DNA from: a virus
Virus record (IMG/VR): IMGVR_UViG_3300038312_000316
Reading direction: 5' to 3' (one strand)
DNA length: 27,756 nucleotides
Position numbers and translations under genes: made by a program. Below, in pieces: positions 1 through 25,559 of the stretch (position 1 is the first letter of the stretch; each line of letters begins with the position of its first letter). The notes beneath the pieces are model-generated. The model was not told where the DNA came from, did no database searches, and was given only the letters and a program-made list of their open reading frames with translations.

Positions 1-1664
1 CCGTTGATGTCGGTGTAGAGGCCGTTGTTGTCGAGGTCGCGGGGGATGTTGGTGAGGCCGGGGAATGGTTGCAGGACGGCGACGATGATGTAGCTGGTTT
101 TTGTCTCGGTGTCGCTGTCGTAGGGGTGCGAGGCGGTGAGGGTGACGGTGTGGGCGCCGGCTGTGGTGTAAGTGTGCTGCGGGTTCTGCTCGGTGGAGGT
201 GCCGCCGTCGCCGAAGGTCCAGAGCCATGAGGTGGGGCCGCCGGCGGAGAGGTCGGTGAACTGGACGGTGAGCGGGGCGGTGCCGCCGGTGGGGGTGGCG
301 GAGAATTGGGCGGTGATGGGGCCGTAGACAGTGATGTAGTCGGGTTTTAGTTCGTAGTCGCTGCCGTATTCGTTGGTAGCGGTGAGGTTGACGGTGTAGG
401 TGCCGGGGGCGGTATAGGTGTGCTGCGGGTTCTGGGCGGTTGAGGTGTTGCCGTCCCCGAAGTCCCAGAGCCATGAGGTCGGACTGCCGGTGCTGGTGTC
501 GGTGAACTGGACGGGGAGCGGGGCGAGGCCGGCGGTGGGGGTGGCGGTGAAGGCGGTTGCGGGTGGGGCGGCGGTTTCCTGTTCGCCGGAGAAGGTGAGG
601 GCGGCGGGCGGGGTGGCGCTGTAGGCGCGGACGAGGACGTAATCGATGGTACGGGTGCCTCCGGCTCCGTTGGTATACTCTCCCTGGTGAAAATGGAGGT
701 GCATCGCGTCAGCGGTATAGGTCTGATCCACGACAGATATCAGCTGGTCTGCATCCCGCACGACAGTAATCCTGCCCGATCCTTCCCATGTGATGCGGAT
801 CGTACAGTAGGTGTCGAGTGTGGGATGCAGTTTCACCCCGGGCCACTCACCAATATACGTGAGACCCCCTGCCCCCCTGCGCGCGAGCGATGCCTGATAT
901 TGCCCCTTGACCGCCGGGGTGTCGGTCTGCTGCCCAAAGATGCTGTACCCGTTCCTAAGTGATGCGTGCCACCAACTAGAGGTCCCCCCATTATGGTCCT
1001 CTAATATGGTCTCGCTCCCCCAGCTAGTATCGTGATAATACCCATCCCCCACCTTCTCTCGATACTCGATGCACACGCCTCTCGGGAACGTGGCGGTCGA
1101 GATGACGTTCGCGGAGGAAACCGTATTCGGTGCGCCTGTGAGGCGTAGGTTTCCGATGCCATCATGCTCAGCGATCGCAGAGGCCGAGCCCTTTTTCTCG
1201 ACGATCCACCTTGACAGGTCGAGAGTACCACTTTCGAAGTGATCATGCACGTAATACGTCGCGCCCCCGTCGCTCGTGGTCGCCGCGCTCGGGTTGCCGT
1301 ACCAGACTTGTAGCACCCCGGCAGCGTCCGCCCCCTCCAACCGCACGCAGAACCGGGCGCTGCTGCTGTCGTAATCCGGCCAGAGATAATATGCGAGCTC
1401 CGCCCCGGTGCTGTTGGTGAACCGAACGTCTCCGTAATCCTCCCGGCAGTGCTCCCCGACATAGATGTGCCAGGTCTCCAGCCCGCCGGCGGTCTCGTTG
1501 TACGCGGTGCCGGTCGTGCGGTGGATCACGATGTCCTGCTGGTAGACGTCCTGGTCGCAGGCGGCGTACTCGATCGTCTGATAATACTCGTAGCCGTCGA
1601 GGGCCGAGGCCCCGGCGACGAGCAGGAGGCACCCGAGGAGGAGGGCGAGGGCCGAGCGCCGCAC
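1..1664 (-). CDS. Secreted modular adhesin, version A: signal peptide, DUF2341-like domain, variable beta-rich domain, 2x PKD, dockerin (3' end runs off the window)
   Basis: Hand translation from GTG at 1664 is open to position 1: MRRSALALLLGCLLLVAGASALDGYEYY...DYGDVRFTNSTGAELAYYLWP...QVWYGNP (DUF2341-like), two PKD repeats (TSWLWDFGDG, TSWLWTFGDG), and the dockerin start PRDLDNNGLYTDING. It is absent from the ORF track because its stop lies outside the window. It starts 2 nt after the upstream stop. Confidence 0.9.
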   Translation of the reverse strand, partial: MRRSALALLLGCLLLVAGASALDGYEYYQTIEYAACDQDVYQQDIVIHRTTGTAYNETAGGLETWHIYVGEHCREDYGDVRFTNSTGAELAYYLWPDYDSSSARFCVRLEGADAAGVLQVWYGNPSAATTSDGGATYYVHDHFESGTLDLSRWIVEKKGSASAIAEHDGIGNLRLTGAPNTVSSANVISTATFPRGVCIEYREKVGDGYYHDTSWGSETILEDHNGGTSSWWHASLRNGYSIFGQQTDTPAVKGQYQASLARRGAGGLTYIGEWPGVKLHPTLDTYCTIRITWEGSGRITVVRDADQLISVVDQTYTADAMHLHFHQGEYTNGAGGTRTIDYVLVRAYSATPPAALTFSGEQETAAPPATAFTATPTAGLAPLPVQFTDTSTGSPTSWLWDFGDGNTSTAQNPQHTYTAPGTYTVNLTATNEYGSDYELKPDYITVYGPITAQFSATPTGGTAPLTVQFTDLSAGGPTSWLWTFGDGGTSTEQNPQHTYTTAGAHTVTLTASHPYDSDTETKTSYIIVAVLQPFPGLTNIPRDLDNNGLYTDIN

Positions 1665-1665
1665 G

Positions 1666-2034
1666 TCACTCACTCCCCTTCAGAGACCGGCCGGTGAAGA
1701 ACTGCACCACGGCGACCAGGTAAACAAGCCAAATGGGGCCCTGAAACATCATGGCGACGATCGGATCTATACCGTAGCTGGTGAGGAGGGGGAGGATTGT
1801 CAGGGCGGTTTTGAGCGCCTCGAAGAACACCCCCCCGAGGGTGAACAACACGGTGATCGGGTAGAGGGGCGAGGCCCCGCCCGATGTGGCGCCGGCAGTG
1901 ATTTCTGTCACCTGGGACTCTCCGAGGGCCATGTCGCTGCCGGGGAGCGCGGTGGTGAAGATGCCGAGCGCGTTGACGCCCCCGACGACAAAGCCGAGGG
2001 CGAATAGTGCCAGTGCAATGGTATAAGCTCTCAT
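1666..2034 (-). CDS. Small membrane/virion protein, 122 aa
   Basis: Hydrophobic N- and C-terminal helices; start overlaps the stop of 2031..4583 (ATGA coupling). Confidence 0.85.
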   Translation of the reverse strand: MRAYTIALALFALGFVVGGVNALGIFTTALPGSDMALGESQVTEITAGATSGGASPLYPITVLFTLGGVFFEALKTALTILPLLTSYGIDPIVAMMFQGPIWLVYLVAVVQFFTGRSLKGSE

Positions 2035-4583
2035 GTGTATCCCTCCTCCTTGTATCGGGTGACGATGACACCCATCACCGCGATGGTGCTGACGAGACCG
2101 AGCGAGACCGGGGCGATGAGTCCGAGATCGTCGAGCCAGCCGAAACCCCAGAAGAGCCAGCCGGCGAAGGCGATCACGACCACGCCCCGGGTGGCGCTGG
2201 TCGCGCCGAAGATGCCGCCGAGGAGCATGAGGCCGAACCCGGCGACGTAGATATATAGGCCGTCGGGGAGCGGGCCGAGCGGGACCCGGACGCCTTTGAA
2301 CGCGACGGCGTAGTCTCGGTGGATGGTGCCGAAGTCAGGGTGCTGTGCTTCGAGCCGGACGAAGAACGATTGCCCTTTGTAGACGGAGAGGTCGAAGGTG
2401 TGGGTGACGTTGGCGTCGTTCGCTACGGTGTGTGAGGCGATGACCTCTTCCGGTGCCGAGGAGTCGGTGGTGTTCTGCTGCGTGACCTGGATACTGAGGC
2501 CCGTGGTCTTGCGGGTGGTGTCGTTGTAGTCGATATGGATGTGCCCCGTGTCGCCTTCGGTGCTGGTGGTGACGTTGATATGGATGTCTCGGAGAGCGTC
2601 CCCGGCGTCAGGGAGGAGGGGGCCGCCGGCAGTGGAGATGATGATCGGGTACGTGTCTTCTTTGGGGTAGATTTCTAGCGTCTGGTTGACGACATCGGGC
2701 TTGTAGAGAGAGATGCGGTATTTGACCGCCTCGATCATCATGAAGTTGATCTCCCCGTTGGTGTCGGTGGTGCCGCTCATGAGCTCGCTGTTGATCGGGG
2801 TTGAGGTCATGTTGAGGCCGAGCAGGGCTTCGAGGATGTTGGTGGAGGGGGTTTGCTGGATCCCCTGCGCGGTGATGTTGACGCCGGAGAGAGGGGTACC
2901 TAAGAGGGTTTGGATAGTGAATTTGACGTTGTGCGGGGGATAGTTGGGCATCTCCGGCGGGGGGACGGGTTCGGGTTTGGCAGTCAGGAGGACGGTGGCG
3001 GTGGTGGTGCCGGGCTTGTCGAGGTATGCGGATTGGGTCTGTGGGTAGTAACCGCCGGCGGCTGCGGTGATGGTGTAGGGGCCGTAGTCCCCGGTGAACG
3101 TCGCGGGGTTTGTGGTGCTCTCCTGGCCGTCGCTGAGGGAGATGGTGGCGTTCTGGACGTTTGCGAGCGTGTCGGCGTCCTTGATGGTGACGGTGAGGAG
3201 GTAGTGCCCTTTGAGCGCGAGGTTGTGTTGTGTTGGGGCACTATCTACGGTGACGGGTTCGCTGAGGGCGTCGTGGAGCGGGGCGGAGGCGGAGATATCA
3301 TAAGTGCCGGGCGTCACGTTGTTAAAGAGGTAGAAGCCGGTGCTGCTCGTCGTGGTGCTGCCGTAGCCGTCGAGGGCGACGGTCGCGCCGCTGATCGGCT
3401 GCTGGCTGCCCTGGGTCTGGACGTAGCCGTAGAGCATGGATTTTCCTTCCTCGATCGGTTCGTCGGGAGGGGCGTCGGGCGCCATCCAGAGTACGATCGT
3501 GGCGCCGTCGTCCCCTACTCCGAACAGGATCGGGGAGAGGAGGGTGTAATTATCTGCTGTGGCCGAGGCGATGTACCGCAAGGAGAGGGATTTCTCTAAG
3601 GAGACAGTCCCGGATCCCGTTGTGAGGGTTTGGTTTGTGAACGAGCTTGTATCCCCGTCGAGGATTGAGACTACCGCACCGGGGATTAGGGCACCAGTCT
3701 CCGCTGAACGAACGGAGATGGTGAGAGGGGCGGTGTTGTCGGGTACTCCATATTCGTACTCATATTTTTCCCCGAAGGCGTTTGTGATGGTGACCGATAT
3801 CGGGAAATCAAACCGAGCCACACCAGTATAGAGGTCCGTTGTGCCAGTGGAATTTACGTACTCTCCAGAGGCACCAGATATCACTGTGTTGGAGTTGTAA
3901 GGCTTCCCATCTACAATCCTGTAAACAGACACATCATACAACAAACTCGTTGAATTTGACACGGTGACTTTGTGCTTAAAGGGAGTGACTAGGTTGAGCG
4001 TGTAGTCTCCAGCAAAGCCCCGTCCGGTGCCTGCGCCAGATGTGATGAAAAAACCCATGGGTTTCTCGGCTGAGAGGGTATTATATGGTTTCATCGTCGC
4101 TAGGCCTGGATTCAGCTTCAAACCGTCGAGTGCCGTATCTGCCAGCACGTTGCCAGGGGCGTACAAGCCCACTTGTTGATTACCAGAGAGAGGGGTTGTG
4201 ATCTTCCCGGTCAGTACAATATACCCATACCCGGTAGAGTACCTATAGTATGTCAAAAGACCATTTCCAACAATATTCCCTGACACTTTTAGATCTACAG
4301 TGGTTTGATTCGCATTTAGTGTGGCGTTATTTGTGTATATTTGTCCGAAGTAAACAATGCTAAAATCTGTATCAACGTAGTTTTCAGCCGCGTATATGCC
4401 AATGGCGTTAGGGCGTGGGGAAGTACTAGATCCCGATGCGGTGACGGCGTAATTTGAGGATTGTACAAATGTGTCGTCGATGACCTCTTCCAGGACCGTT
4501 TGCCCCGCCACAGGGCTGATCGCAAGACAAAGGAGGCAGATCACCACGAATATTTTGAGGGTTTTGAAAGTTCGGGGTATCAT
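2031..4583 (-). CDS. 850-aa membrane-anchored adhesin/spike-like protein: signal peptide, carboxypeptidase-regulatory-like/PEGA beta-sandwich repeats, C-terminal multi-TM anchor
   Basis: Long ORF with GGAGG RBS. Contains LYGYVQ..PISGATVALDG..TTTSSTGFYLFNNVTPGTYDISAS (CarboxypepD_reg-like). About 3 hydrophobic segments at the C-terminus. The layout resembles fusellovirus VP4-type proteins (inference). Confidence 0.85.
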   Translation of the reverse strand: MIPRTFKTLKIFVVICLLCLAISPVAGQTVLEEVIDDTFVQSSNYAVTASGSSTSPRPNAIGIYAAENYVDTDFSIVYFGQIYTNNATLNANQTTVDLKVSGNIVGNGLLTYYRYSTGYGYIVLTGKITTPLSGNQQVGLYAPGNVLADTALDGLKLNPGLATMKPYNTLSAEKPMGFFITSGAGTGRGFAGDYTLNLVTPFKHKVTVSNSTSLLYDVSVYRIVDGKPYNSNTVISGASGEYVNSTGTTDLYTGVARFDFPISVTITNAFGEKYEYEYGVPDNTAPLTISVRSAETGALIPGAVVSILDGDTSSFTNQTLTTGSGTVSLEKSLSLRYIASATADNYTLLSPILFGVGDDGATIVLWMAPDAPPDEPIEEGKSMLYGYVQTQGSQQPISGATVALDGYGSTTTSSTGFYLFNNVTPGTYDISASAPLHDALSEPVTVDSAPTQHNLALKGHYLLTVTIKDADTLANVQNATISLSDGQESTTNPATFTGDYGPYTITAAAGGYYPQTQSAYLDKPGTTTATVLLTAKPEPVPPPEMPNYPPHNVKFTIQTLLGTPLSGVNITAQGIQQTPSTNILEALLGLNMTSTPINSELMSGTTDTNGEINFMMIEAVKYRISLYKPDVVNQTLEIYPKEDTYPIIISTAGGPLLPDAGDALRDIHINVTTSTEGDTGHIHIDYNDTTRKTTGLSIQVTQQNTTDSSAPEEVIASHTVANDANVTHTFDLSVYKGQSFFVRLEAQHPDFGTIHRDYAVAFKGVRVPLGPLPDGLYIYVAGFGLMLLGGIFGATSATRGVVVIAFAGWLFWGFGWLDDLGLIAPVSLGLVSTIAVMGVIVTRYKEEGYT

Positions 4584-4701
4584 TATACCTCCCTCCGATA
4601 CCCCCCCTTGGCGATCACGCTCAGTAAGGGGTGCCGCCGGCGGGCGGGGCGACGCGGGAGGGGGAGCCCGGGCGCGAGGGAGCAGGGGGCGGGGGGGCGG
4701 G

Positions 4702-5043
4702 TCACTCTAATCCCCCCATAAGTCGGTTGTACCTGATTTTCCGAATCACTACGAGGTAGACGTACGCGAACGCCGCGATGACCGAGAGCGCGATGAGGAG
4801 CCAGAGCCACTTGAAGAGCGGCATGACGGTCGAGACGAGCGGGCTGTCGATGGTGAGGACCCAGACCGCGAGCCAGTCCCAGAAGGGGCCGATGCAGACG
4901 ACGATGCCGGCCAGGGCGAGCAGGGTGACGATGAGGTACAGGATCGCGTCGAGGATCGAGGGGCCGCCGTCAAGTATGTTATCGAGGGCGTGCTGCGCGG
5001 CAGGCACATCTGCCGCCAGCGGGGTGCTGTGCGCGCACATCAT
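4702..5043 (-). CDS. Two-TM helical-hairpin membrane protein (capsid-like)
   Basis: Two long hydrophobic helices and a basic C-tail (RKIRYNR). A TATA-like TTATAT lies upstream on the minus strand (~5070-5080). Start codon uncertain. Confidence 0.75.
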   Translation of the reverse strand: MMCAHSTPLAADVPAAQHALDNILDGGPSILDAILYLIVTLLALAGIVVCIGPFWDWLAVWVLTIDSPLVSTVMPLFKWLWLLIALSVIAAFAYVYLVVIRKIRYNRLMGGLE

Positions 5044-5504
5044 ATGATGTGGTTTGCGTGCTCCGGGGAGATATAAGTTTCGAGAGCCGAGGCTCGTTGA
5101 GGTAGACCGTTGCGCCTTTTGGTCCGCTGTGAGGGGCAGGATTTGGTTGTCCTGTGTATGATGAACAATTTACGATTTGCGGCTGCCCCACCCGCAAGTA
5201 TGGGGTGCGCGGAAGAGAGAGAAAAGGGTTTCTGTCCGGCGTGAAGGGATGTGGGGCAGGAGGTCAAAGAGGTAGATCGAGACCTGTCTGTCGTCTGCCC
5301 CGGCCGACAACTGAATCTATGGGAGGCAAGGCATAAAAACATTGCCTGTGGGGAATCGTTCCCTCGCGCGGCGTTTTGTGAATAGAGGTTCCCTGAGGGG
5401 TCTGTGCGCGGGGATCTTGTTTCTCCGGCGTCGGACAGCGTAAGATATTTATATTTAGGTGGAGATTTGGGAGTATCTCTGAGTAGTCAGAGAGGTGGAT
5501 CGAA

Positions 5505-15548: not shown

Positions 15549-15590
15549 GATCTTTCCTCTACTACATACTATGTATGCAAACTATAAATA
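15546..15590 (-). promoter_or_regulatory. Promoter with TACATA-C-TATGTA palindromic operator, copy 1
   Basis: 34 bp (15546-15579) identical to 16016-16049; TTTATAG box just upstream on the minus strand. Confidence 0.8.
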
Positions 15591-15598
15591 AGTTTCTA

Positions 15599-16018
15599 TT
15601 AGTCCTCTCCCGGGATCATGATGGTGATGCACGGCCGGCCCTCGGGATCCGCTGCACCAACCTGCATCTCCAGGGTGATCGTCCTGCGCTGGGCCGCTTT
15701 TTGGATGTAGATCACTTTAAACCGCAGCGCGTCCGCGTCCGGCCTGCATCGCGCAGCGAGCCGGGCCATCCATAGAGTATCCCACAGTCGCCCCTCTACA
15801 CTCTGACCGTACGGGACGGATCGCGGGTCAGGGGTGATGTACTCGTCCCAGAGTGTGCGGGTCACCGAGACCGGGATCGTAAACCCAGCCTCACGGGCCA
15901 TCTCGGATACGTCCACCTGATACCCGTCCCGGATCGCGTCCTCGCGGGTGTATGCGTAGATCAGATCCTCTTCCCCAAAGAGGGGGGTTTCAAAGGTTGT
16001 CTGGATTGTTTCGGTCAT
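15599..16018 (-). CDS. DUF6573-like protein, 139 aa
   Basis: YTREDAIRDG..VDVSE.AREAGF..PV.VT..LW...GQS.EGRLWD.L.M...P.ITIM.P.ED. Confidence 0.7.
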   Translation of the reverse strand: MTETIQTTFETPLFGEEDLIYAYTREDAIRDGYQVDVSEMAREAGFTIPVSVTRTLWDEYITPDPRSVPYGQSVEGRLWDTLWMARLAARCRPDADALRFKVIYIQKAAQRRTITLEMQVGAADPEGRPCITIMIPGED

Positions 16019-16148
16019 GATCTTTCCTCTACTACATACTATGTATGCATAGTATTTATTACTTTCTGTTTGGAGTGTTTGGGGGTGACCGGGCCCTTGA
16101 GGGATAGTATTAGATAATTATATATACTATGCATACATAGTATGTATT
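16016..16148. promoter_or_regulatory. Divergent promoters carrying operator copies 2 and 3
   Basis: 16033-16055 is the exact reverse complement of 16124-16146 (23 bp); TTATATATA at 16118-16126. Confidence 0.8.
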
Positions 16149-16811
16149 ATGGTAAAATACACCCACGAAAACACAGAGGGGTACTCCCCCCAGGATCTCG
16201 AAAATCTGAACGAACTCTACGAGCACCGGATCGCGGGCCTCGACGAGGACCAGCGCGAGAACCCCGACTACCTGCAGCACATCAGCGAGCAGGTCCTCCA
16301 GGAGTACGACCAGTTAGCCACCCTGACCCGGATTGAGCAGATCTACGGTACCCCTCGCCGCGAGGAGGGAGCCCCACCGGACCTCCCTGGGTCGGTGCGA
16401 TCCCTGATAGGCTCGCTCGGGTGCGAGCGGGGGATGCTGTACTCTCTCTGCGACGAGCTCCTCGGGGGTCGCCGGTACCTCTCGTTCGCGGAGTTCCAGG
16501 ACTCGCTCCGTGCAGAGATCGCGGAGCACATCGCCGCGCTCCAGCGCACCGCTGCGATCGGGCGCCCCTCCCCGTCCCCCCGGGACGAGGAGGGTGAGCT
16601 CGCCGAGTCCCTCCTCCGCTCGGGAGTATCCTCTCAGCAGGTCGCCGACCTCCGGCAGACCGGCGACCTCCGGTGCTCCGTCTGTGGCCGCGTCCTCGAG
16701 GTCGTCGAGGAGGACGGGGAGACGACCTGGATTGCCTGCCCGGTCTACAGCACCGGAGCACCAGACGCGGGGGAGCACTCCTCCGTGCGGCTGGACCGCC
16801 CGAGAGAGTGA
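16149..16811 (+). CDS. 220-aa protein: shared N-terminal domain and C-terminal Zn ribbon
   Basis: LRCSVCG...IACPV; apparently leaderless after the operator. Confidence 0.8.
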   Translation: MVKYTHENTEGYSPQDLENLNELYEHRIAGLDEDQRENPDYLQHISEQVLQEYDQLATLTRIEQIYGTPRREEGAPPDLPGSVRSLIGSLGCERGMLYSLCDELLGGRRYLSFAEFQDSLRAEIAEHIAALQRTAAIGRPSPSPRDEEGELAESLLRSGVSSQQVADLRQTGDLRCSVCGRVLEVVEEDGETTWIACPVYSTGAPDAGEHSSVRLDRPRE

Positions 16812-16968
16812 GTCCGCTAGCGGGGTCCGGCGGAGCAACCCGGCCGGCCCGGCGAACCTCTCCCCCGCACACCCCCGGCCCCCGGTCGGGGAGCAGGGAG
16901 AAACTTTTATCGTTATCGAGACCCCACTATCGGACTAGAGCGGCCGAGTGGCCCGGCGAGGTGCGCGA

Positions 16969-17064
16969 ATGAGTAAGCAGCGGGTCAGAGGTCATCTGCG
17001 AAGCGTCCCCGGACGGAAACAGAGGATCCGGGTGAAATCCTACGAACGAAAAAGAGGGAAGTAA
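16969..17064 (+). CDS. 31-aa Arg/Lys-rich peptide, putative genome-binding
   Basis: Hand translation MSKQRVRGHLRSVPGRKQRIRVKSYERKRGK; GAGGTG RBS; stop is 1 nt before the next ATG. Confidence 0.7.
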   Translation: MSKQRVRGHLRSVPGRKQRIRVKSYERKRGK

Positions 17065-17065
17065 C

Positions 17066-17308
17066 ATGGCAAAAGCGAAGGGCTCAACCAAAAAGGCGAG
17101 CACAACCAAAAAGAAGAGCGGACAGACGAAGATCGGTGCCTATGGACGGCGGGTCCTGAAGGCGACGTACAAGCAGACCGGAACCTCCTCGACGGTCCGG
17201 GACAAGAAGCGGAAAGCGATGCAGCCGGGCAAGCGGCGCAGCGCCAGCGGCCGGATCTACACCGAAACGCGGAAGAACCGATCGGACCTCCGGGGATCCC
17301 GGGTCTGA
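17066..17308 (+). CDS. Highly basic 80-aa protein, putative nucleoprotein
   Basis: Lys/Arg-rich; RDKKRKAMQPGKRRSASGRIYTETRKNRSD. Confidence 0.8.
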   Translation: MAKAKGSTKKASTTKKKSGQTKIGAYGRRVLKATYKQTGTSSTVRDKKRKAMQPGKRRSASGRIYTETRKNRSDLRGSRV

Positions 17309-17322
17309 TCAGGGGGAGCCGG

Positions 17323-17523
17323 ATGGTAAAGCGGAGATACGACGCCCCTCCCGAGAAAAAGAAATTCGCGGGAAAGACCTATACCCGGATGGCCTCTTAC
17401 TCCCCCGGGATGCCTAAGAGGGTTTTGGACGAGGCAAAAGGGGTTCTCAGGCGGGGTAACTGCAGCGCCCGAACGGTGAAAACCAAAAAGGGCTATACTT
17501 ATTTGTACATCGCAAAGAAGTGA
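17323..17523 (+). CDS. Basic 66-aa protein
   Basis: KKFAGKTY...G..AR.VK...YLY; paralog-like to the next gene. Confidence 0.75.
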   Translation: MVKRRYDAPPEKKKFAGKTYTRMASYSPGMPKRVLDEAKGVLRRGNCSARTVKTKKGYTYLYIAKK

Positions 17524-17702
17524 TCCACATGGTCCCGGCAGTAACACGAAAACGCTTCGACGGGAAACTGTACGCGCGGTTCCCCATCCCCGAAACCACG
17601 AAGGCGAAGGCACAAACAACCGCAAAGAAGCTGCGAGCAAGAGGAATGTGCGTCCGCGTGGTGAACGAAGACGGACGATACTACTTGTACGGCAGGAAAT
17701 AG
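17520..17702 (+). CDS. Basic 60-aa protein
   Basis: KRFDGKLY...K.LRARG..VRVV...YYLY; GTGA coupling. Confidence 0.75.
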   Translation: MIHMVPAVTRKRFDGKLYARFPIPETTKAKAQTTAKKLRARGMCVRVVNEDGRYYLYGRK

Positions 17703-17705
17703 CCG

Positions 17706-17722
17706 TTCTCTTCTATTTTTGG
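17706..17722 (+). terminator. T-rich archaeal terminator candidate
   Basis: TTCTCTTCTATTTTT just after the last gene of the basic operon. Confidence 0.45.
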
Positions 17723-17873
17723 ACGAATTCTTAATCTGAGCCCTAAGAACGCCCAGATTAAACACCTTCACAGACGCCTTAAAACCGACGATCTCCGGGC
17801 GGGTGGAGTGATACATCCTCCCGTTTTTCCCGCCCCCTTAAATCGCCGTGATACTCAAAGATTTGGGCTCGGA

Positions 17874-18128
17874 TCACTCCGGCCCGGCACTCACCCGATT
17901 CTCCCGCGAGAGGAGGACTCCCTGCAGGCCGAGGAAGGCGATCAGGGTGATGATCAGCGCCTCTATTGGGTACTCCCCGCTCAGAGCCCTGGATCCCGAG
18001 TAGATCGCGGCAACCCAGGCGATCCCGTACGCCCAATGGATCGGGCGGTGGGCGATCTCCGTTGCGAGGGAGTTGATCGCGCGCAATACAATGCTTTCAC
18101 CGGTTTGTTCTGTCGTTTCCATACTCAT
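17874..18128 (-). CDS. Small 2-TM membrane protein, 84 aa
   Basis: GGAG RBS; last gene of the morphogenesis run. Confidence 0.7.
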   Translation of the reverse strand: MSMETTEQTGESIVLRAINSLATEIAHRPIHWAYGIAWVAAIYSGSRALSGEYPIEALIITLIAFLGLQGVLLSRENRVSAGPE

Positions 18129-18136
18129 CTATCTCC

Positions 18137-20431
18137 TTAGAATCCCCCGACCTCGAAGAAGTCCGCCGGCGGCCCGGCCACCGGGGACCGGCGGGAGGAT
18201 TTCTTCCCCTTCTGCCGGGCGGGAGCGTCGAACGACCCCGCCCTACCTAGCGAGAACTCGATATCCGGAACGGGGTTTCGCACGATCCAATCATACGGGT
18301 CCCGCGCCGGACGCCGCCCCTTCCTCTTTCCCGACCGCTCCGCCTCATCGAGCCGGAAGCCCCGGGGCGCTGGCTCGTCCCGGAAGAGTCCCGGGACCCT
18401 GCCGGGGATCCCGCTGTCCCGGGGCCGACCACCGCCCCGCCCCCCTACACGGGGGCGCGGGGGCCGGGGATCCACTTCCCACGGCCGCGACGGGCGAGTC
18501 TCACGGCGGACGGTATCCGGCTCCCGGCGACCGGGGCGGATCTCCGGGTCCGGGCCGCGTATCGCTCGGTCGAGGGATGCCCGCTCCGGACGCACCGCAC
18601 CGCTCCCCCGGGCCTCGGTCGGCCGAGTCTGCCGGGCCGGCCGGACGGTGAACGTTCCTTTGGGCACATCCATAACTCCCCGGGTTCGAGTGCCAGATGC
18701 GTCCCGGCGGCCGGAGGCCGGGCGAGTCGGAGGGCCGGCGAGCACTTCCTCCACCGTCACCCCCCCTCGCCGGCGGCGGCTCGCCTCGGCCGCTCCTGCA
18801 GCTGGGGCCGCCAGCGGGCCAGAGGTGAGATCCGGCAGGCTCGGCAGCTTCGCCCGGATCCGCGGGATGTCAATCAGGATCGGGGGCGGTGGTGCCTGCG
18901 GGACCGGGCTGGTCGAGAACTCCATGATCTCCAGGAACTCCCCCGTTGCCGGGTGGATCGTGTAGGAACTCCCCCGGGTCACGCCGAACCGCTGGAAGAA
19001 CCGGGACCGGCCGCTATGCACCGGATACAGCCGCGTTCCGGGTTTCACGACATACTCATGTTCCGGCAGCCCTTTCCACTCGAATCCCGATATCGGTTTT
19101 GGAGAGACAAGGATCTCCCCTCGTGGAGCGTTGAAGTACTCCTTGTATGCCGCGACAGTGAGATGCTGCTGCAGGGACCGGGGGACTCGCTCCCCGCTCT
19201 GCCGGAGGGCTTCCCGCTCCTTTGCCATCGAGGCCAGCCGATCGGGGATATCCCGCACGGTGCCGCGAACCTTCAGGAACCCTCCCGACGAGAACGGGCC
19301 GTATCCGGTATCCGGCGGCCCGAGGAAGAGCGCGTGTTCCACGGCACCGAACGCCGGATCGACCTTGCCCCGCTCCAGGGCGGCAGCGGCCGCCCGGGTC
19401 TCCGGGATCGCGGTGGGCTTGTGGCCAGCGACCTCCAGCCGCCCCTCTTTCACCCCCAACTCCAGGAAGTCCCGGGAAGTGCCGTGATAGTAGTTCCGGG
19501 GAATCTCGAAGATGTCCGGGGCGAGCTCAAACTTCGTGGACCCTCGTAGAGTGGGATGATACTCCAGGGGGTTCTGCCAACGGGTGATCGCCTCGATCGG
19601 CCCCGGCGCTCCGGTGTAGACATTCATCCCGCGCTCGAAGAACGGATCGAGGTGCGCGACACCGCGCAGGGCCGTAGCTCCGGCCCGCTGCTTGAGCGGA
19701 GCGGTCTTCCCGCCTATCACCACGCCGGCAGCCATCTCCCCGACGAACCGGGCAGGGTTCTCCTGTGCGGCCTGGACGGTCCCCGCACCGACCGCCACGA
19801 GACCGCCGGCGGTCATCCCTGCAGCTCCGGCCGGGTCCCGGAGAGCCATCCGTGCCGCTCGCTCAGCGCCGAGCGGGGCAGCGGTGACGAACTCGATCGT
19901 ATGCTGCGGCATATCAACCGCTGCACCTTTGGCGAGATCGTGCCCGATATCCCCCTCCCAGTTCGGCCGGAGGCGGGTGCCCCCTCCGGTGAGCGGGCCG
20001 GCCGTCACCGGGACGACCTGCCCACCCTCAAATCGGTGGAGCGTCCGGGGGCCGAGGTAGGGGAGCGAGTCGATCGCCTGGGATATGGCCGGCGCTGCGT
20101 TCTTCGTCCACCACTGACTCGCCCCTACCCCGGCATCATAGATCGGTTTGGAGATGTCCTGCGGGATCCCCTGCTGCTTCGGCTGCACCGGCCGGGCCGC
20201 GATCGGCTGCTGCTTCGGGGCGAGTGCCTTCTTCAGCTGCTGCACCGGCTGCACGGGTTTTGCGGCCGTCTGCCGGGCCGGGGTTGCGGCGGCAGGACGG
20301 GAGTACCCTCGACCGTAGAACACCGTCGCCGGCTCCGGCCGGGTCGGTGCGGGGGCCTGTACCGGCTGCTGCTTCGGGGTGAGTGCCTGCCGGACGTTCC
20401 GGCCCTGCTGCACGAACCAATCGAGCACCAT
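18137..20431 (-). CDS. 764-aa protein: Gln/Pro-rich N-terminus, Gly/Ala hydrophobic middle, ADP-ribosyltransferase-like domain, Arg-rich C-tail
   Basis: Long ORF in operon context. Motifs YYHGTS ... LFLG ... EHEYVVKPGTRL. The function call is motif-level only. Confidence 0.8.
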   Translation of the reverse strand: MVLDWFVQQGRNVRQALTPKQQPVQAPAPTRPEPATVFYGRGYSRPAAATPARQTAAKPVQPVQQLKKALAPKQQPIAARPVQPKQQGIPQDISKPIYDAGVGASQWWTKNAAPAISQAIDSLPYLGPRTLHRFEGGQVVPVTAGPLTGGGTRLRPNWEGDIGHDLAKGAAVDMPQHTIEFVTAAPLGAERAARMALRDPAGAAGMTAGGLVAVGAGTVQAAQENPARFVGEMAAGVVIGGKTAPLKQRAGATALRGVAHLDPFFERGMNVYTGAPGPIEAITRWQNPLEYHPTLRGSTKFELAPDIFEIPRNYYHGTSRDFLELGVKEGRLEVAGHKPTAIPETRAAAAALERGKVDPAFGAVEHALFLGPPDTGYGPFSSGGFLKVRGTVRDIPDRLASMAKEREALRQSGERVPRSLQQHLTVAAYKEYFNAPRGEILVSPKPISGFEWKGLPEHEYVVKPGTRLYPVHSGRSRFFQRFGVTRGSSYTIHPATGEFLEIMEFSTSPVPQAPPPPILIDIPRIRAKLPSLPDLTSGPLAAPAAGAAEASRRRRGGVTVEEVLAGPPTRPASGRRDASGTRTRGVMDVPKGTFTVRPARQTRPTEARGSGAVRPERASLDRAIRGPDPEIRPGRREPDTVRRETRPSRPWEVDPRPPRPRVGGRGGGRPRDSGIPGRVPGLFRDEPAPRGFRLDEAERSGKRKGRRPARDPYDWIVRNPVPDIEFSLGRAGSFDAPARQKGKKSSRRSPVAGPPADFFEVGGF

Positions 20432-20433
20432 CC

Positions 20434-20742
20434 TTACCGCCCCTCATAGATTGAGTAGTCGTCCCCGTATCGGTCGTACCGCTTCCGCTGGTGGAGCGTC
20501 ACCACGAAGATCGCCACGCCGAGCACGGGAATCACATACATCAGGAAGTAGTAGATGTTGATCACCAGGTTGATCGTGCCGCTCTGGTCCCACTCTGCCG
20601 GGACATCATAGACGCCGGCGATCGTGAAGCCGTCCACGAGTGCATCGAGGATCGTCCCGCCAGCGAGGCTCATCATAACGCCGATCACAATCGTCACGAT
20701 CATGATAATGAACCCCTGCCACACGGCGCTGAAGCTAGTCAC
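20434..20742 (-). CDS. Helical-hairpin 2-TM protein (capsid-like), 102 aa
   Basis: Two hydrophobic helices; basic residues after TM2; start overlaps the upstream stop. Confidence 0.8.
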   Translation of the reverse strand: MTSFSAVWQGFIIMIVTIVIGVMMSLAGGTILDALVDGFTIAGVYDVPAEWDQSGTINLVINIYYFLMYVIPVLGVAIFVVTLHQRKRYDRYGDDYSIYEGR

Positions 20743-21004
20743 TTGGATTCTCCTCCAGCGCCCTGATGTATGCCCAGTACCCGATACCGAGGAGCCCGAT
20801 GATCGGGATAGCTGCGAACCATCCTAACGACCACCCAACCGCTCCGGCCGTCTGCACGCCAACCTTACCGTCACCTATGAGGGTGTTGGCGGCCTCGATC
20901 GCCCCGTTAAGTGCCGGGGTGAAGCAGATGAAGATCAGCGCGACCATTCCGATGAACATCACGACCGCGATTAACCCATATGCAATGCCTTCGTCGTTTT
21001 TCAT
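20735..21004 (-). CDS. Helical-hairpin 2-TM protein (capsid-like), 89 aa, starting MKNDEG
   Basis: GAGGT RBS; TATA-like TTATATA at ~21060-21067 on the minus strand. Confidence 0.8.
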   Translation of the reverse strand: MKNDEGIAYGLIAVVMFIGMVALIFICFTPALNGAIEAANTLIGDGKVGVQTAGAVGWSLGWFAAIPIIGLLGIGYWAYIRALEENPSD

Positions 21005-21106
21005 TTCAACCTCGCTTCGGCCCCGGTCGGGGAAAAAGAGAGTTTCAAGCCTGTACAAACTATATAATTCGTATTCCGAGCCGGAGTGACGGCGGCGGCA
21101 GGCGTT

Positions 21107-22042
21107 TTAGTCCCCCCTGTAACCGAGTTCCTGCAGCACCCCTCGCGTCTTCCACCGATACCAGGTACGGTCTGGTACTCCGATCTCTTTGAGGGCTTCT
21201 TTGTGTGCCATCCCGATAAGCCGGCACCGCTCGTACTCCGGCAGGACTCTCTTGGCACGATCGTACATATCCGAGGTCATCCGAGGCCCTGGAGCCGGCT
21301 TCTCTTCTTCTTCCCGCCTCGCCCGCTCCGAGATGATCCTCCGGGTTACGTCCTTCCGGATCTTGTCGTACTGCATCGCCAGGAACTTGGGGGGACGGTG
21401 GACCACATACTTGGTGATCTTCGCCCCGTCCTCCGCGACGAGGTGCGGTGTGATACGCTGATTGTTGAGCCGGAAGAGGGTCTTCGTCTTAAAGACCTTC
21501 ATCAGGGAGAAACCCCTACTGTATTCAGAGCGATCCATCTCTGCCATGTAGTTGCAGAGCATCCGGGGCACTTTGTCCAGGAGGAACTGATTCGGCATCG
21601 AGAGGATCTGCACGGTCTGCGCGACACGGTTGATCTGGAAGATGTCGTTCTTGTCCCGGTTGTCCTTGCTCGCAAACGACCGGGAGTTCCACCCCACCCC
21701 AATGTCGTCAAAGAGGTAAATGTTGTACGGTTTCGCCTCTCCAATGATCTCAAATGCTCTATCGGGGTCGATGATGGCGACATTGTTCATGCTGAAGTAT
21801 TTGGTCCACTTGTGCCAGTCGTCGTCGAGGATCTCTGCCACGCACCGGGCCGTATTGTAGGCGATGCGGAGCGAGGCATATGATTTCCCGGAGCCCTTCT
21901 GCCCTTGGAGGAGCATAGCGATATCCTGCTTGTACGGTCCGGTGATGGTGTGCGCGAACCGCTGCGCCAGGAAGTCACAGCCGCCCCGCATAGCAGCATA
22001 GGATAGTCCGGAGCCCTTCTGCGGGAGAGGGTTATGTGACAT
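21107..22042 (-). CDS. P-loop ATPase (Zot-like/spindle-virus morphogenesis type) with C-terminal HTH
   Basis: Walker A GQKGSGKS; Walker B IYLFDD followed by GVGWNSR; tail HKEALKEIGVPDRTWYRWK. Start uncertain (22042-22084). Confidence 0.85.
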   Translation of the reverse strand: MSHNPLPQKGSGLSYAAMRGGCDFLAQRFAHTITGPYKQDIAMLLQGQKGSGKSYASLRIAYNTARCVAEILDDDWHKWTKYFSMNNVAIIDPDRAFEIIGEAKPYNIYLFDDIGVGWNSRSFASKDNRDKNDIFQINRVAQTVQILSMPNQFLLDKVPRMLCNYMAEMDRSEYSRGFSLMKVFKTKTLFRLNNQRITPHLVAEDGAKITKYVVHRPPKFLAMQYDKIRKDVTRRIISERARREEEEKPAPGPRMTSDMYDRAKRVLPEYERCRLIGMAHKEALKEIGVPDRTWYRWKTRGVLQELGYRGD

Positions 22043-22490
22043 CGACGCAGGCAGCTTCGCCATCGGCACCGCCATTGCACTCACCCCCTCCGAACTGGGC
22101 TTCGTCTTCCTCTTCTCCCGGCTGAGGTCCGCACACGCCGTAGGTCATCACGGTTGTAACGCCGAGCATGTTGTCGTACCAGCTCCGGACATCTCCGAGG
22201 ACGCGCGTGCAGGCGTTCACCATCGCTGTCGCTTCGTCGTCGTTTGAGGGCGTTTTGTAATCTTTGAGACCCTCCTCGTAGTACTGCTTTTTTCTCACCC
22301 GGAACTCTTCCCGCATCCCCTCGTCAGTGACTGCCGAGATCATCAGGTCGGTGAAGATCGGGATCCGGGGGTCCCGGATGTTCGTCATCTGAATGATAAT
22401 CTGCTCAAGGGCGTTCCATGAGATGAAATGACTGTGAAGATACTCGTCCTTTGCCGCCATCGGCGGCGTTCCGAGGCTTACCTTTGCCAT
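22032..22490 (-). CDS. Hypothetical helical protein, ~152 aa
   Basis: GGAGG RBS before ATG 22490; overlaps both neighbours. Confidence 0.75.
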   Translation of the reverse strand: MAKVSLGTPPMAAKDEYLHSHFISWNALEQIIIQMTNIRDPRIPIFTDLMISAVTDEGMREEFRVRKKQYYEEGLKDYKTPSNDDEATAMVNACTRVLGDVRSWYDNMLGVTTVMTYGVCGPQPGEEEDEAQFGGGECNGGADGEAACVDVT

Positions 22491-22849
22491 GAGATCACAT
22501 CCCTCCGTGCAAGGATCCGCTGCCACTTCTCGAATAGCTCAATCCCGGCCACCGCTCGCTCCGTGGAGATTTTCTGGTTCCGGGGATCTATCCATGCCCG
22601 GATGCCCTTGAGGAGCTTTACACTATCCTCGTCGTCTTCGTCTACGATCTCCTGATAGGGGGAGGTCAGGGTGAAGAGTGCGGCGAAACACTCATAAAAC
22701 TCCAAAAAGGGTTGGGTGAGCGGCCCCCGGGGATCCATGAGATAGAGGCGGAGGTTGGTGCCCTGCCGGGCCGTGGCGATATATGCGGCGTCGATGACGG
22801 TCGCAATCGCGGGCCGCTCGGTTCTGGGTGTCGGGAGAGATTCTGCCAT
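22478..22849 (-). CDS. Hypothetical protein, 123 aa
   Basis: GAGG RBS; operon position. Confidence 0.75.
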   Translation of the reverse strand: MAESLPTPRTERPAIATVIDAAYIATARQGTNLRLYLMDPRGPLTQPFLEFYECFAALFTLTSPYQEIVDEDDEDSVKLLKGIRAWIDPRNQKISTERAVAGIELFEKWQRILARRDVISWQR

Positions 22850-22856
22850 GTGTGCC

Positions 22857-23675
22857 TCACTTGATGATGTTGTACGCCACTGCTCCGCCGATGATAATCA
22901 TCAGTGCCGCGATCGCTGCCGTGAGAATCAGGCCGAACTTCTTGGCGAAGTCTTCCATCTGTTTCCGCACTTTCCGCTCGATGAGCAGGCCGTACTGGTG
23001 GAGGTCCTGCGAGAGGTAGGCGGTCGGGATGTTCTTGAACGCATAGGCGTAGGAATACATCCCGCTGCTCGGCACCTCGACCTCTGCGGTGCGGTCCTGG
23101 GCGTCGATGATGAGGTTCATCAGGGCGCGAGAGTCGTGGACATCGAACTCCACGGCAGTTGTGGCGGTCATCTCGTAGAGGGACTCGCAGTATTCCTCCA
23201 GGTCGTTCCGGGGTGTGTCGAGGAGCGCCAGAACCTGATCGTCCGTCAGGAATTGCAGCTGCGGGAACTCCGTCCGGATCGTGTAGATCACCGTCTGGAG
23301 AGACATGCAGTGCCGGCCGTCGAGGGCGAGTGGGGTCGTGGTGCCGTAGTGGTAGACCCGCAGCCCTTTTGCGAGCCGGTCGGGGGCGATCTGCCCGCTG
23401 AACTTCGGGTCTACCTGGATACCGAACGACTGGCCTTTGACACTGAAGACCGGATCGCCCTTCTCGTCTTTCCCGCCTAAGATCAAGTCCGTCTCCCCTG
23501 TGCCGGGGACCGTGAGGGCCAAGACCGGGAGGTTCTTCTTCCTCGCCTGGGAGAGGATGCGCCATTCGGGGATCCACTTGTAGACTTCGGAGACGATCAG
23601 GCCGAGGCCGACATAGCCGCCGGCTGCAATGAGTCCACCGGCGATGAGGGTCAGGTCGTCAATTACCATCGGCAT
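22857..23675 (-). CDS. 272-aa protein with N- and C-terminal TM anchors
   Basis: Hydrophobic ends; TAATG coupling. Confidence 0.8.
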   Translation of the reverse strand: MPMVIDDLTLIAGGLIAAGGYVGLGLIVSEVYKWIPEWRILSQARKKNLPVLALTVPGTGETDLILGGKDEKGDPVFSVKGQSFGIQVDPKFSGQIAPDRLAKGLRVYHYGTTTPLALDGRHCMSLQTVIYTIRTEFPQLQFLTDDQVLALLDTPRNDLEEYCESLYEMTATTAVEFDVHDSRALMNLIIDAQDRTAEVEVPSSGMYSYAYAFKNIPTAYLSQDLHQYGLLIERKVRKQMEDFAKKFGLILTAAIAALMIIIGGAVAYNIIK

Positions 23676-24253
23676 TAGTTGTCACCTCCGCCGAAGACCC
23701 GGCTGATGATGCCGAGCCCGCGCTTTGCTCGTTTCTGTTCTTCGTCATTGGTGATCTTCGATACGCTCTCATAGGTTGTTCTGTTCTGCAGGATCCGCTC
23801 TCTCTCTGTGCCGAGGGTGCGGCTGACGATGAAGCGGTTGAAGTGCGCCCGGATCAGCTCTATCAGGTGCGGGTATTCGGGGAGGTTGATATCGACCTTG
23901 TTACAGTTGAGTGCCAGGAGGTTGAGGGCGATATCAAGGTCAATCTCTGCGATCTCTGCGTCCCGCTGGTAGGAGAGAAGTGCCGTGTGTGAGAAGAAGT
24001 TGAGGATCGTCGAGATGAAGGCCCGCTTCGCCCCGGGAGAGAGATGGCTGCCATTGATGCGCTCGATTAAGAAGGGGCGATAATCTGAAGAATAGAGGCT
24101 TTCGAGATAGTTGTAGTGCTCGGCTACGTAAGGGACGGCCGGGCGGCCGGTAGGTGCTGCAGGGTGCTGCTGAGGGTCAGTGCCGTAATCGACCCCGCAC
24201 TCTCCGCCCCAATCGTTCTGGTCCGGGAAGTCGGGGGAGTCGTAACCATCCAT
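23675..24253 (-). CDS. Hypothetical protein, 192 aa
   Basis: GGAG RBS; acidic N-terminus and basic amphipathic C-terminus. Confidence 0.8.
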   Translation of the reverse strand: MDGYDSPDFPDQNDWGGECGVDYGTDPQQHPAAPTGRPAVPYVAEHYNYLESLYSSDYRPFLIERINGSHLSPGAKRAFISTILNFFSHTALLSYQRDAEIAEIDLDIALNLLALNCNKVDINLPEYPHLIELIRAHFNRFIVSRTLGTERERILQNRTTYESVSKITNDEEQKRAKRGLGIISRVFGGGDN

Positions 24254-24299
24254 GAAATCTCCTGCGTAGTCATAGTGTTATGGAGGAATGGAAGGGGGA

Positions 24300-24680
24300 T
24301 TAGATCCCGCCTCCAGACCCGCTGTTGCCCCGGATCCTCATGATGGCCCAGATGATCATCGCAAGGATGGAGACCATCACGGCGAGCGTCAGGAGACTGG
24401 CGTTCTGTTCCCAGATGCCGACACCCGTGGGGATTTCCGTGTTCTCGGTGGCATTCCACTGCGAGCCGGCGGGGATCGACGCCGCACCGTCGATGTTGGA
24501 CCCGATCAGGGGTGCGAGAGAGAATACCGCCACGAGCACGATCAGCCCGATCGCCATCGTCACAGCGACGTCAATCATGGTGTCTCCGGACTCGTTCATG
24601 CGCCGGGAAAAGAGATTCTTCTGCGCTTCCTCTGCCCACTGCTTCAGAGCGGTGCAGGTTTTGAGAGGTTTCTCAAGCAA
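24300..24680 (-). CDS. Probable major capsid protein precursor, spindle-virus-type helical hairpin
   Basis: Polar leader, TM1 (VAVTMAIGLIVLVAVFSLAPLI), loop with an N-x-T sequon, TM2 (LLTLAVMVSILAMIIWAIMRIR). Own strong TATA box (TATAAATA at ~24727-24734, minus strand) and GGAGGT RBS. Start uncertain. Confidence 0.65.
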   Translation of the reverse strand: MLEKPLKTCTALKQWAEEAQKNLFSRRMNESGDTMIDVAVTMAIGLIVLVAVFSLAPLIGSNIDGAASIPAGSQWNATENTEIPTGVGIWEQNASLLTLAVMVSILAMIIWAIMRIRGNSGSGGGI

Positions 24681-24771
24681 AGTGTTTTTGATGACCTCCG
24701 ATGGAGAGTATATCGTCCTTTCGATTATTTATAGGTTTCCCGCCTAATGGGGGATGGGGAGGGGGGGCCGG

Positions 24772-25026
24772 TCAAATCAGCCGGCGGAGGATGATGAGAC
24801 CGGCGATCAGCGCGATGATCACGAGCATCACCGGCAGATAGGAGATTAGGGAGATTGATGCACTTGATGCGCCGACCGTGGCGTTGTACTGGTCCGCATA
24901 CGGGGAGTCGGTCATGTTCGTCGCGCTGTCCGCAGCCCCGAGCGCACTGATGCCGTACGTGAGGCCGATAACCAGGGCGAAGACCACAAGGGCCGCCCCG
25001 AGGATGGTGTTGAGTCCGGTTGCCAT
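24772..25026 (-). CDS. Capsid-like helical-hairpin protein (minor capsid), 84 aa
   Basis: Two hydrophobic helices with N-x-T sequons in the loop; ends YLPVMLVIIALIAGLIILRR, similar in pattern to fusellovirus VP1/VP3. Confidence 0.75.
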   Translation of the reverse strand: MATGLNTILGAALVVFALVIGLTYGISALGAADSATNMTDSPYADQYNATVGASSASISLISYLPVMLVIIALIAGLIILRRLI

Positions 25027-25391
25027 TATTGCAGCTCCTTCATGATTTCGAGGCCGAGTGAGATGATGAGCGCCAGGGATACGATCGTCATGACTGCCGC
25101 GATCCCGGAGAGGAGGAGACCGAGCGCGGGGTCTACGGTGGTTGCAGTCAGGGTGCCGTACTCGATCGTGGTGATGTTCGTGGTGATGTTCGCTGCTGTA
25201 GTCAGCGCGACCGTGGTGATGTCGCCTACATTACCGCCGAGGGTGACGAGGGCGAGATACCAGGAGAGGATCGCGGACCCGACCGCCGAGAGGATGTCCA
25301 TGAAGAGGCGGTTGCCTGTCGCAAGGAAGGCGATTGCGATCAGAGCGGCGTCGAGCAGGAGCAGGGCGATGAAGAGTGATGTAGCGATCAC
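25026..25391 (-). CDS. 3-TM membrane protein with Thr-rich loop, 121 aa
   Basis: Coupled at both ends (GTGA, TAATG). Confidence 0.8.
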   Translation of the reverse strand: MIATSLFIALLLLDAALIAIAFLATGNRLFMDILSAVGSAILSWYLALVTLGGNVGDITTVALTTAANITTNITTIEYGTLTATTVDPALGLLLSGIAAVMTIVSLALIISLGLEIMKELQ

Positions 25392-25558
25392 CGTTCCACC
25401 CCCGTGAGCGTGAGCGTGATTTCTATACCCATCCCCCGCGTCTGAAGGATCTGGTTGAGTTCGGGGATTGCCCGGGTGACTTTGGTATTCTTGACCTCGT
25501 AGATCCGTCCCTCCTCGTCATAGAGAGTGAGGCGCCCGAAATAGAGTTTTGGCATCAT
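25388..25558 (-). CDS. Hypothetical protein, 56 aa
   Basis: Hand translation MMPKLYFGRLTLYDEEGRIYEVKN...; exactly fills the gap between 25560 and 25391. Confidence 0.7.
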   Translation of the reverse strand: MMPKLYFGRLTLYDEEGRIYEVKNTKVTRAIPELNQILQTRGMGIEITLTLTGVER

Positions 25559-25559
25559 G

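Follow-up and report, generated by a model that had tools for sequence, protein, structure and literature searches.

Why should a single viral contig end, on both sides, in the same adhesin gene, with matching flanks and centres that cannot be aligned? This question is raised by the IMG/VR virus record IMGVR_UViG_3300038312_000316, a stretch of 27,756 nucleotides (nt) that is referred to here in its entirety as the window. One version of the gene (allele A) lies at the left end and another (allele B) at the right end, each with its own central segment, termed cassette A and cassette B. We regard it as likely that the window derives from a circular, virus-like element of about 26.4 kb belonging to Methanomicrobiales (Methanoculleus type), with two adhesin alleles whose lectin head was recombined from a shared pool. 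On this reading, the overlap of the contig with itself would fall in a single adhesin gene that is present as two alleles in the sampled population. These alleles would share a signal peptide, an N-terminal DUF2341 domain (N-domain), a joint behind the cassette, a stalk of PKD domains, and a dockerin-like tail, and would differ in the lectin-fold head, an indel of 11 amino acids (aa) in the linker, and a diverged first PKD domain (PKD1). The two alleles and their parts are arranged as follows (GC3, GC content at third codon positions; ConA, concanavalin A):

3..1673, minus strand: adhesin allele A, 557 codons from a GTG at 1673, with the C-terminal dockerin part lost at the window start.
1254..1664, minus strand: constant 5' part, with signal peptide and DUF2341 N-domain (Pfam, 4.2e-14).
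633..1253, minus strand: cassette A, 207 codons, predicted L-type lectin/ConA-like beta-sandwich, GC 57%, GC3 67%.
599..632, minus strand: 3' joint VRAYSATPPAA, the same in A and B (repeat family D4) and kept in nearly all relatives.
566..598, minus strand: linker insertion of 33 nt, LTFSGEQETAA, found in A and in the related protein P0018 and not in B.
1..565, minus strand: C-part of allele A, with linker, PKD1, PKD2, and the beginning of the dockerin linker DLDNNGLYTDIN.
26393..27756, minus strand: adhesin allele B, 453 codons, with the N-terminal 105-108 codons lost at the window end.
27155..27658, minus strand: cassette B, 168 codons, same predicted lectin fold as A, GC 52%, GC3 63%.
26396..26602, minus strand: dockerin-like tail, two repeats of a Ca-loop plus helix, DINGNNRLDYNDL and DFNGNGWLDYNDV.

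The relationship between the two ends is evident from the window itself. A repeat search identified positions 1254-1351 and 27659-27756 as 98 nt with 100% identity (family D6), and since the preceding base differs (A at 1253, C at 27658), the repeat is exactly 98 nt long. On the other side of the cassettes, pairwise alignment of the window ends places 1-632 against 26556-27154. The copies are near-identical over 1-275 and roughly 76%-91% identical over about 275-530, which corresponds to PKD1 (the second PKD domain, PKD2, is 98%-100% identical between A and B); they are identical over 530-565 and 599-632, with a single indel of 33 nt at 566-598. The identity and length of these terminal repeats are far beyond chance expectation. 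Between the flanks, 633-1253 (621 nt) and 27155-27658 (504 nt) cannot be aligned at the DNA level, and the encoded cassettes share 17% amino acid identity. The reading frame is nevertheless kept through both on the minus strand (allele A from 1673 to 3, allele B from 27754 to 26393), and gene callers applied to relatives start the adhesin at the GTG equivalent to 1664, not 1673. Both cassettes have similar edges, opening with FxDxF...W and closing with (I/V)D(Y/W)xxVRAYSATPP, and these motifs recur in the relatives. A first-pass annotation of the window had described the 98-nt identity of the ends, the match of 1-632 to 26556-27154, the unrelated in-frame centres of 207 and 168 codons, and the similar edge motifs, all of which were reproduced here. 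Because 98 nt equals k-1 for k = 99, the contig may have stopped at a junction node of a de Bruijn graph.

How the two ends belong together becomes clear from contigs of other samples. The 17-kb contig L001 (ENA ERZ27283036), found by exact look-up of the neighbouring proteins in other assemblies, matches both ends of the window, with its positions 1-930 corresponding to window 2183..1254 (100% identity) and its positions 833-13029 to window 27756..15560 (99.9%). It crosses the shared 98 nt and encodes one complete adhesin of 558 aa (P0003/P0013), which joins the N-terminus of A to cassette B and is the complete form of allele B. The constant 5' part at 1254..1664 is 100% identical to L001, L005, L006, and L007, the last of which comes from a third sample and stops exactly at window position 1254, the cassette edge, as a graph branch at this point would cause it to do. 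Three further contigs (L030, 25.6 kb; L031, 25.7 kb; L032) match the window context for about 10 kb on either side of the adhesin and encode one adhesin of 569 aa (P0018) between the genes for a 122-aa and a 278-aa protein. In the window, the genes next to the adhesin are:

25560..26396, minus strand: 278-aa protein with signal peptide, cohesin-like beta domain (residues 22-156), and three transmembrane helices.
1666..2034, minus strand: 122-aa protein with two transmembrane segments, encoded in the adhesin operon directly ahead of the adhesin.
2031..4583, minus strand: 850-aa protein, membrane-anchored and containing CarboxypepD_reg domains, hypervariable among relatives in its N-terminal part.

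L001 and L030-L032 begin at different points of one shared gene order, in keeping with a genome of about 26.4 kb that is circular or circularly permuted. Window positions 1352-27756 comprise 26,405 nt, and further relatives are found on contigs of 25.6-29 kb. Since these independent contigs from other samples hold a single adhesin gene, the window can be read as a circle and A and B as alleles. The first-pass annotation had offered two interpretations, a circle of about 26.4-26.6 kb that occurs in the population as two alleles, or a tandem array of dockerin adhesins that broke the assembly. The former is supported by the join in L001 and by the single adhesin of L030-L032. The latter would require at least two adjacent paralogous adhesins, with repeats that interrupted the assembly at both ends; each contig end does fall within paralog-like sequence, and the intragenic PKD repeats might mislead assemblers. 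However, L001, L030, L031, and L032 all span the locus with exactly one adhesin and the same neighbours, the chromosomal copy L040 described below likewise has one, and related contigs of around 25.6-27 kb suit a single-copy circle, leaving the tandem array very improbable. The window thus represents a single element of about 26.4 kb, circular or circularly permuted, whose assembly ran on for about 1.35 kb beyond its starting point.

The case for two alleles on this circle is weakened by two observations on the side of allele A. In sequence searches, cassette A was seen in its exact form only in this window, and short-read assembly cannot place A and B on the same backbone beyond the 98 nt that are all the right junction shares. 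The part with cassette A might therefore come from a co-occurring relative, with the assembler jumping at the shared 98-mer, so that A and B would be orthologs in two strains. The divergence of PKD1 between A and B (9%-24%) and the last 120 nt of A, which are closer to L030 than to L001, would agree with such a chimeric contig. Yet the whole of 1254-2183 is 100% identical to contigs bearing cassette B, and recombination among co-infecting relatives would give mosaic patches of the same kind. We consider a chimera improbable, and even a chimera would leave the locus, the flanks, and the swap as they are and would weaken only the word "allele". The reading as one circle with two alleles is therefore retained below.

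What do the two cassettes encode? The adhesin consists of a signal peptide, the DUF2341 N-domain, the variable cassette, the VRAYSATPPA joint, two PKD domains, and the dockerin-like tail. DUF2341 (PF10102) is detected in allele A with 68.2 bits (8.7e-19), in the fragment of allele B with 35.8 bits, and in the N-domain alone with 53.2 bits (Pfam cut-off 23.4 bits), and two PKD copies per allele (PF18911 or PF00801) score above the Pfam cut-off with E values of about 1.5e-37. The bare cassettes have no significant match in Pfam, PHROGs, or PDB sequences, and the lone weak hint from these cassette searches is 3keto-disac_hyd (E 0.07) for cassette B. Structure prediction is more informative. The AlphaFold2 model of the N-domain with cassette A (27 homologs) reached a predicted local distance difference test (pLDDT) score of 91.9 and a predicted template modelling score of 0.90. 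In this model, cassette A (model residues 117-331) matches the L-type lectins ERGIC-53, Emp46/47, and VIP36 as well as legume lectins, with VIA Z scores of about 19 and root-mean-square deviations (rmsd) of 2.6-2.9 over about 190 aligned residues (for 4ygc_A, Z 19.3, rmsd 2.8, 195 residues). The AlphaFold2 model of cassette B is of moderate confidence (pLDDT 74.9); its residues 106-288 are legume-lectin-like and also match ERGIC-53 and GH16 structures, with VIA Z scores of 15-16 over about 175 residues (for 5zbt, Z 16.1, rmsd 3.0, 176 residues). The models thus confirm both cassettes as predicted ConA/L-type lectin beta-sandwiches, in agreement with the lectin/LamG-like fold anticipated for both variable domains in the first-pass annotation.

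GH16 enzymes are also among the top Foldseek matches of the cassette A model (E about 1e-7). By eye, the translations of cassettes A and B have no evident GH16 ExDxxE motif, which for A is a point against our reading. The lectin assignment is drawn from the predicted fold, with an identity to the templates of just 7%-13%. When cassettes A and B are aligned to each other by hhalign, the match is not significant (27% probability, E 7e-4, 77 columns), and the alignment of the whole units is dominated by the N-domain; sequence-level homology between A and B is therefore unproven, and it is the fold alone that they are shown to share. In the cassette A model, the edge motifs form the first and last strands of the sandwich. 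As both termini are adjacent in the legume lectin fold, the whole domain might be replaced without disturbing its flanks.

Is the swap confined to these two alleles? Comparison with relatives carrying the same N-domain (21 JGI loci and 143 protein clusters) strongly supports the earlier proposal of a cassette that is exchanged between constant flanks. Sorted by cassette, the 108 proteins that have both junctions represent 35 families, most of which are lectin-like, while some are glycine-rich and one is RCC1-like. Among pairs with N-domains at least 90% identical, 11 of 18 have different cassette families, and conversely, 32 pairs have cassettes at least 80% identical on N-domains that are at most 75% identical. 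Between L030 and L001, identity is 100% over a segment that begins about 155 nt before cassette B and ends shortly after the joint; farther upstream, it drops to 81%-95%. A and B are distinguished by their cassettes, by the linker indel, and by PKD1, but not by PKD2. The breakpoints thus vary and lie within conserved sequence, a signature of homologous recombination. The cassettes also mark a compositional break, with GC3 values of 53%-75% compared to 69%-96% in the N-domain flank and 58%-90% in the C-part; cassette GC3 is below both flanks in all 16 of 16 loci (genome mean 76%). Either donors of lower GC content or a GC enrichment of the flanks by frequent recombination may account for this pattern.

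The same cassettes also occur on other scaffolds. Cassette A has 97 representative homologs, and eight of ten that were scanned carry DUF2341 with the cassette directly after it in otherwise varied architectures. A homolog with 52% identity is part of an 858-aa protein encoded after a tape-measure-sized gene and tail genes of a tailed virus, and other relatives of the N-domain bear Sipho_Gp37 or Prophage_tail domains, which ties the module to positions typical of receptor-binding proteins. Cassette B recurs with 86% identity in the 958-aa membrane-anchored protein P0014 and with 99% identity in P0018. Within IMG/VR, there was no exact match to the cassette A DNA or the 98-nt flank and no relative of the N-domain. 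We propose that the head would be drawn from a pool of at least 35 cassette families distributed over related elements, tail proteins of tailed methanogen viruses, and a chromosomal remnant, and that it would be exchanged by homologous recombination within the conserved flanking sequence.

Replacement is not restricted to lectin-like domains. A glycine-rich domain (Gly_rich_2, PF21722) fills the lectin slot in L009 and L016 and in the proteins P0124, P0156, P0172, P0176, P0180, and P0183, and P0184 has RCC1 repeats at this position, indicating that the slot accepts unrelated folds. A sub-lineage (L020, L021, L022, and P0011) has the same N-domain and cassettes followed after the joint by a short conserved tail (...HHVVFGSANMMVI). 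It lacks the PKD domains, the dockerin, and the cohesin-like neighbour, which suggests a different mode of attachment. The adhesin operon seems to encode a second hypervariable surface protein, namely the 850-aa protein: compared to the 843-aa protein of L030, its C-terminal ~300 aa are about 95% and its middle about 75% identical, and its N-terminal ~215 aa have no similarity to that protein.

Could the exchange be an active switch, as implied when the first-pass annotation called the locus a host-range switching device? A mechanism of this kind would use a serine invertase or another enzyme to swap cassettes, as in the Mu Gin/G system or in shufflons, or a diversity-generating retroelement (DGR) to diversify the head. 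The window does encode a serine recombinase of the Hin/Gin type (11842-12438, minus strand; Resolvase 2.2e-28, PHROG DNA invertase 1.9e-37). Nevertheless, no inverted repeats bracket the cassette, no silent or second cassette is stored in the window, and none of the open reading frames (ORFs) of at least 250 aa has a reverse transcriptase (RT) domain, which argues for homologous recombination rather than a programmed switch. Moreover, A and B share position and orientation, the cassettes are unrelated rather than point- or adenine-mutated copies of each other, and the breakpoints vary between genome pairs. A programmed switch is thus extremely improbable, and "switching device" was an overstatement, as the exchange itself is upheld and its active control is not. 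The variation is a population-level polymorphism, and it looks as if it arose by homologous recombination in the conserved flanks. Elsewhere in the window, a perfect inverted repeat of 40 nt (6207-6246 and 6422-6461) is formed by TCCA microsatellites with 175 nt between its arms.

The adhesin has no membrane anchor, which raises the question of how its head is held at a surface. The last 69 residues match EF-hand_7 in Pfam (6.5e-6), and Dockerin_1 (PF00404) scores 19.3 bits (1.3e-3), below its cut-off of 22.9 bits. The duplicated DxNxNGxxDxxD loops are kept in eight of eight aligned tails, a precomputed PF00404 match exists for the relative P0193, and a profile of the tail compared to the PDB retrieves EF-hand proteins, with a Ruminococcus dockerin only at E 0.18. 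The adhesin gene and the 278-aa gene overlap, with the stop of the former and the start of the latter combined in ATGA. The 278-aa gene, with 31%-99% identity, lies directly downstream in ten of the ten dockerin-type loci with downstream DNA (L008, L011, L014, L016, L024, L030-L033, and L040), and it is not downstream in L017, L018, and L022, which lack the dockerin. In the ESM Atlas, 28 of the 30 top matches of the 278-aa protein are cohesin sets (scores 0.92-0.93). The results of two other searches speak against this assignment, as the protein has no match to Pfam Cohesin (PF00963; one relative reaches E 0.29) and an alignment of the cohesin-like proteins returned no cohesin from the PDB profiles. 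On the basis of synteny and co-occurrence, we propose that the 278-aa protein may serve as the membrane socket for the dockerin and that the adhesin probably attaches through a cohesin-dockerin pair. In this arrangement, the dockerin would clip the secreted adhesin onto the cohesin-like protein that the overlapping downstream gene encodes and that is anchored in the membrane, and the adhesin would display the lectin head at the end of the PKD stalk. Literature searches turned up neither a paper about DUF2341-lectin adhesins nor one about cohesin-dockerin pairs of archaeal viruses.

Which kind of element carries this locus, and in which host? The adhesin gene is part of a long co-directional block that also encodes two-transmembrane hairpin proteins, a P-loop ATPase, the 850-aa membrane protein, and a 764-aa basic protein; several such hairpin proteins of 84-126 aa are found in the window. 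Genome hits fall in metagenome-assembled genomes of Methanomicrobiales and Methanoregula, and a segment of 95 nt (16758-16852) is 96.8% identical to unannotated intergenic DNA of the Methanoculleus virus Blf4/L4768, whose host is M. bourgensis. This match covers the end of the ORF 16149-16811 and the sequence just beyond it, and indicates a link through the host or the ecosystem. A tie to a cellular host is provided by L040 (GCA_900198705.1, FZPS01000021.1, positions 8578-12625), a remnant of 4 kb on a chromosomal contig of 927 kb that is 88%-93% identical to the window. It comprises the last third of the 850-aa gene, a gene for a 123-aa small transmembrane protein, an adhesin gene with a third cassette family, and the 278-aa cohesin-like gene, flanked by cellular genes (M20 peptidase, class Ib tRNA synthetase). 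Such a copy may possibly act as a cassette donor.

A non-tailed archaeal virus is the most likely identity of the element. This assignment is challenged by the lack of recognisable capsid (such as a major capsid protein of the SSV1 VP1 or His1 VP21 type), portal, or terminase genes in PHROGs and Pfam searches, by the ATPase, for which tblastn found no match in phage records, and by the occurrence of the 4-kb module in a cellular chromosome, where the adhesin may act on the surface of host cells. A search with ARAGORN for a tRNA suited as an att site was negative. The element could also be a plasmid, a vesicle-forming element, or an integrative element, whose adhesin would decorate the cell or vesicle for contact or substrate attachment, with cassettes that track partners or niches. 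Besides the absent structural genes, the encoded serine recombinase, the four-gene module amid housekeeping genes of the 927-kb contig, and the many cellular surface proteins with DUF2341-lectin units would fit this possibility. We consider it unlikely, since non-tailed archaeal viruses typically have such a co-directional block in which small two-transmembrane hairpin proteins are encoded together with a P-loop ATPase, since tailed viruses also use the unit of N-domain and cassette in their tail proteins, and since the chromosomal copy is truncated, beginning within the 850-aa gene. For spindle-shaped methanogen viruses, PMC9796341 provides context only.

Other features of the window lie outside the adhesin operon. 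Two divergent genes, 15123-15548 (minus strand) and 16149-16811 (plus strand), encode proteins with paralogous N-termini (M.YT.ENTEGYS..DLE.LN..YEHRIA), which produce an inverted repeat of 152 nt with 78% identity (15391-15542 and 16158-16309), and their upstream regions share promoter-like AT-rich repeats (D15, I3, I4). A protein with a PAPS-reductase domain (PF01507, 2.4e-23) is encoded at 9024-9824 (plus strand) in an accessory gene cluster.

How does the locus compare to known systems? In lactococcal siphophages (p2, TP901-1, and bIL170 type), the heads of the receptor-binding proteins are exchanged between a conserved shoulder and neck. The adhesin resembles these proteins in its conserved attachment part, its interchangeable and presumed saccharide-binding head, the presence of unrelated heads in related elements, and recombination in conserved linkers. 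It differs in its variable domain, which is central instead of C-terminal and has a predicted L-type lectin/ConA fold, in its constant C-terminus of a PKD stalk and a dockerin-like tail, in its archaeal host, and in the lack of tail genes. The tail fibres of T-even and lambdoid phages (gp37/gp38, stf/tfa) share with it the patchwork of identity, breakpoints in conserved segments, and modules common to unrelated phages, but are fibrous trimers with C-terminal tips and chaperones, have no lectin plugged in between globular flanks, and belong to non-archaeal hosts. Alternative receptor-binding ends in one population are also known from Mu (Gin/G), P1 (Cin/C), the archaeal virus phiCh1 (Int1), and the DGR of the Bordetella phage BPP-1, and a serine invertase gene is present here as well. 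Unlike these systems, the window lacks inverted crossover sites around the cassette, a stored copy, an RT, and a template repeat. The fold of both cassettes is that of the carbohydrate-recognition domains of L-type lectins (ERGIC-53/LMAN1, VIP36, Emp46/47, and legume lectins) and of the GH16/ConA-like superfamily, from which they differ by an identity of 7%-13%, a GH16 catalytic motif not seen by eye, and their position embedded after DUF2341. Finally, the dockerin-like tail and its neighbour recall the non-cellulosomal cohesin and dockerin modules of archaea such as Archaeoglobus fulgidus in the duplicated Ca-loop and helix, the translationally coupled cohesin-like gene, and their co-occurrence. 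In contrast to those modules, both are below the Pfam thresholds here and occur, as a putative pair, in a mobile or viral setting.

The locus is clearly an archaeal example of head-domain shuffling in what would be a target-binding protein. Unusual features are the central position of the variable domain, the framing of the cassette by flanks that are kept across virus morphotypes, and the probable cohesin-dockerin attachment. Taken further, Methanomicrobiales viruses, both the non-tailed ones of about 26 kb and tailed ones, and chromosomal remnants of their hosts might share at least 35 lectin or glycine-rich head cassettes between adapters formed by the end of DUF2341 and VRAYSATPPA. The adhesin of the 26-kb elements would be soluble and plugged on by a virus-encoded cohesin-dockerin pair, which would allow retargeting at two levels, with host chromosomes as donors. 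We put this broader scenario forward tentatively, as possible rather than probable.

For the analysis of viromes, the window illustrates how short-read assembly renders a circular genome with one polymorphic hotspot, namely as a contig whose terminal overlaps are mismatched, a pattern that is useful for judging circularity and microdiversity. To our knowledge, the number of described methanogen viruses is very small, and there is almost no characterisation of their receptor-binding proteins. The locus offers a sharply bounded, naturally interchangeable head domain with dozens of natural variants on one scaffold, and evidence of the same heads in tail proteins of tailed viruses. If the head binds a glycan on the surface of target cells, as we propose, a head swap would change which cells are bound. 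The adhesin is thus a candidate for the factor that decides to which cells of the Methanoculleus type these elements attach in anaerobic digesters.

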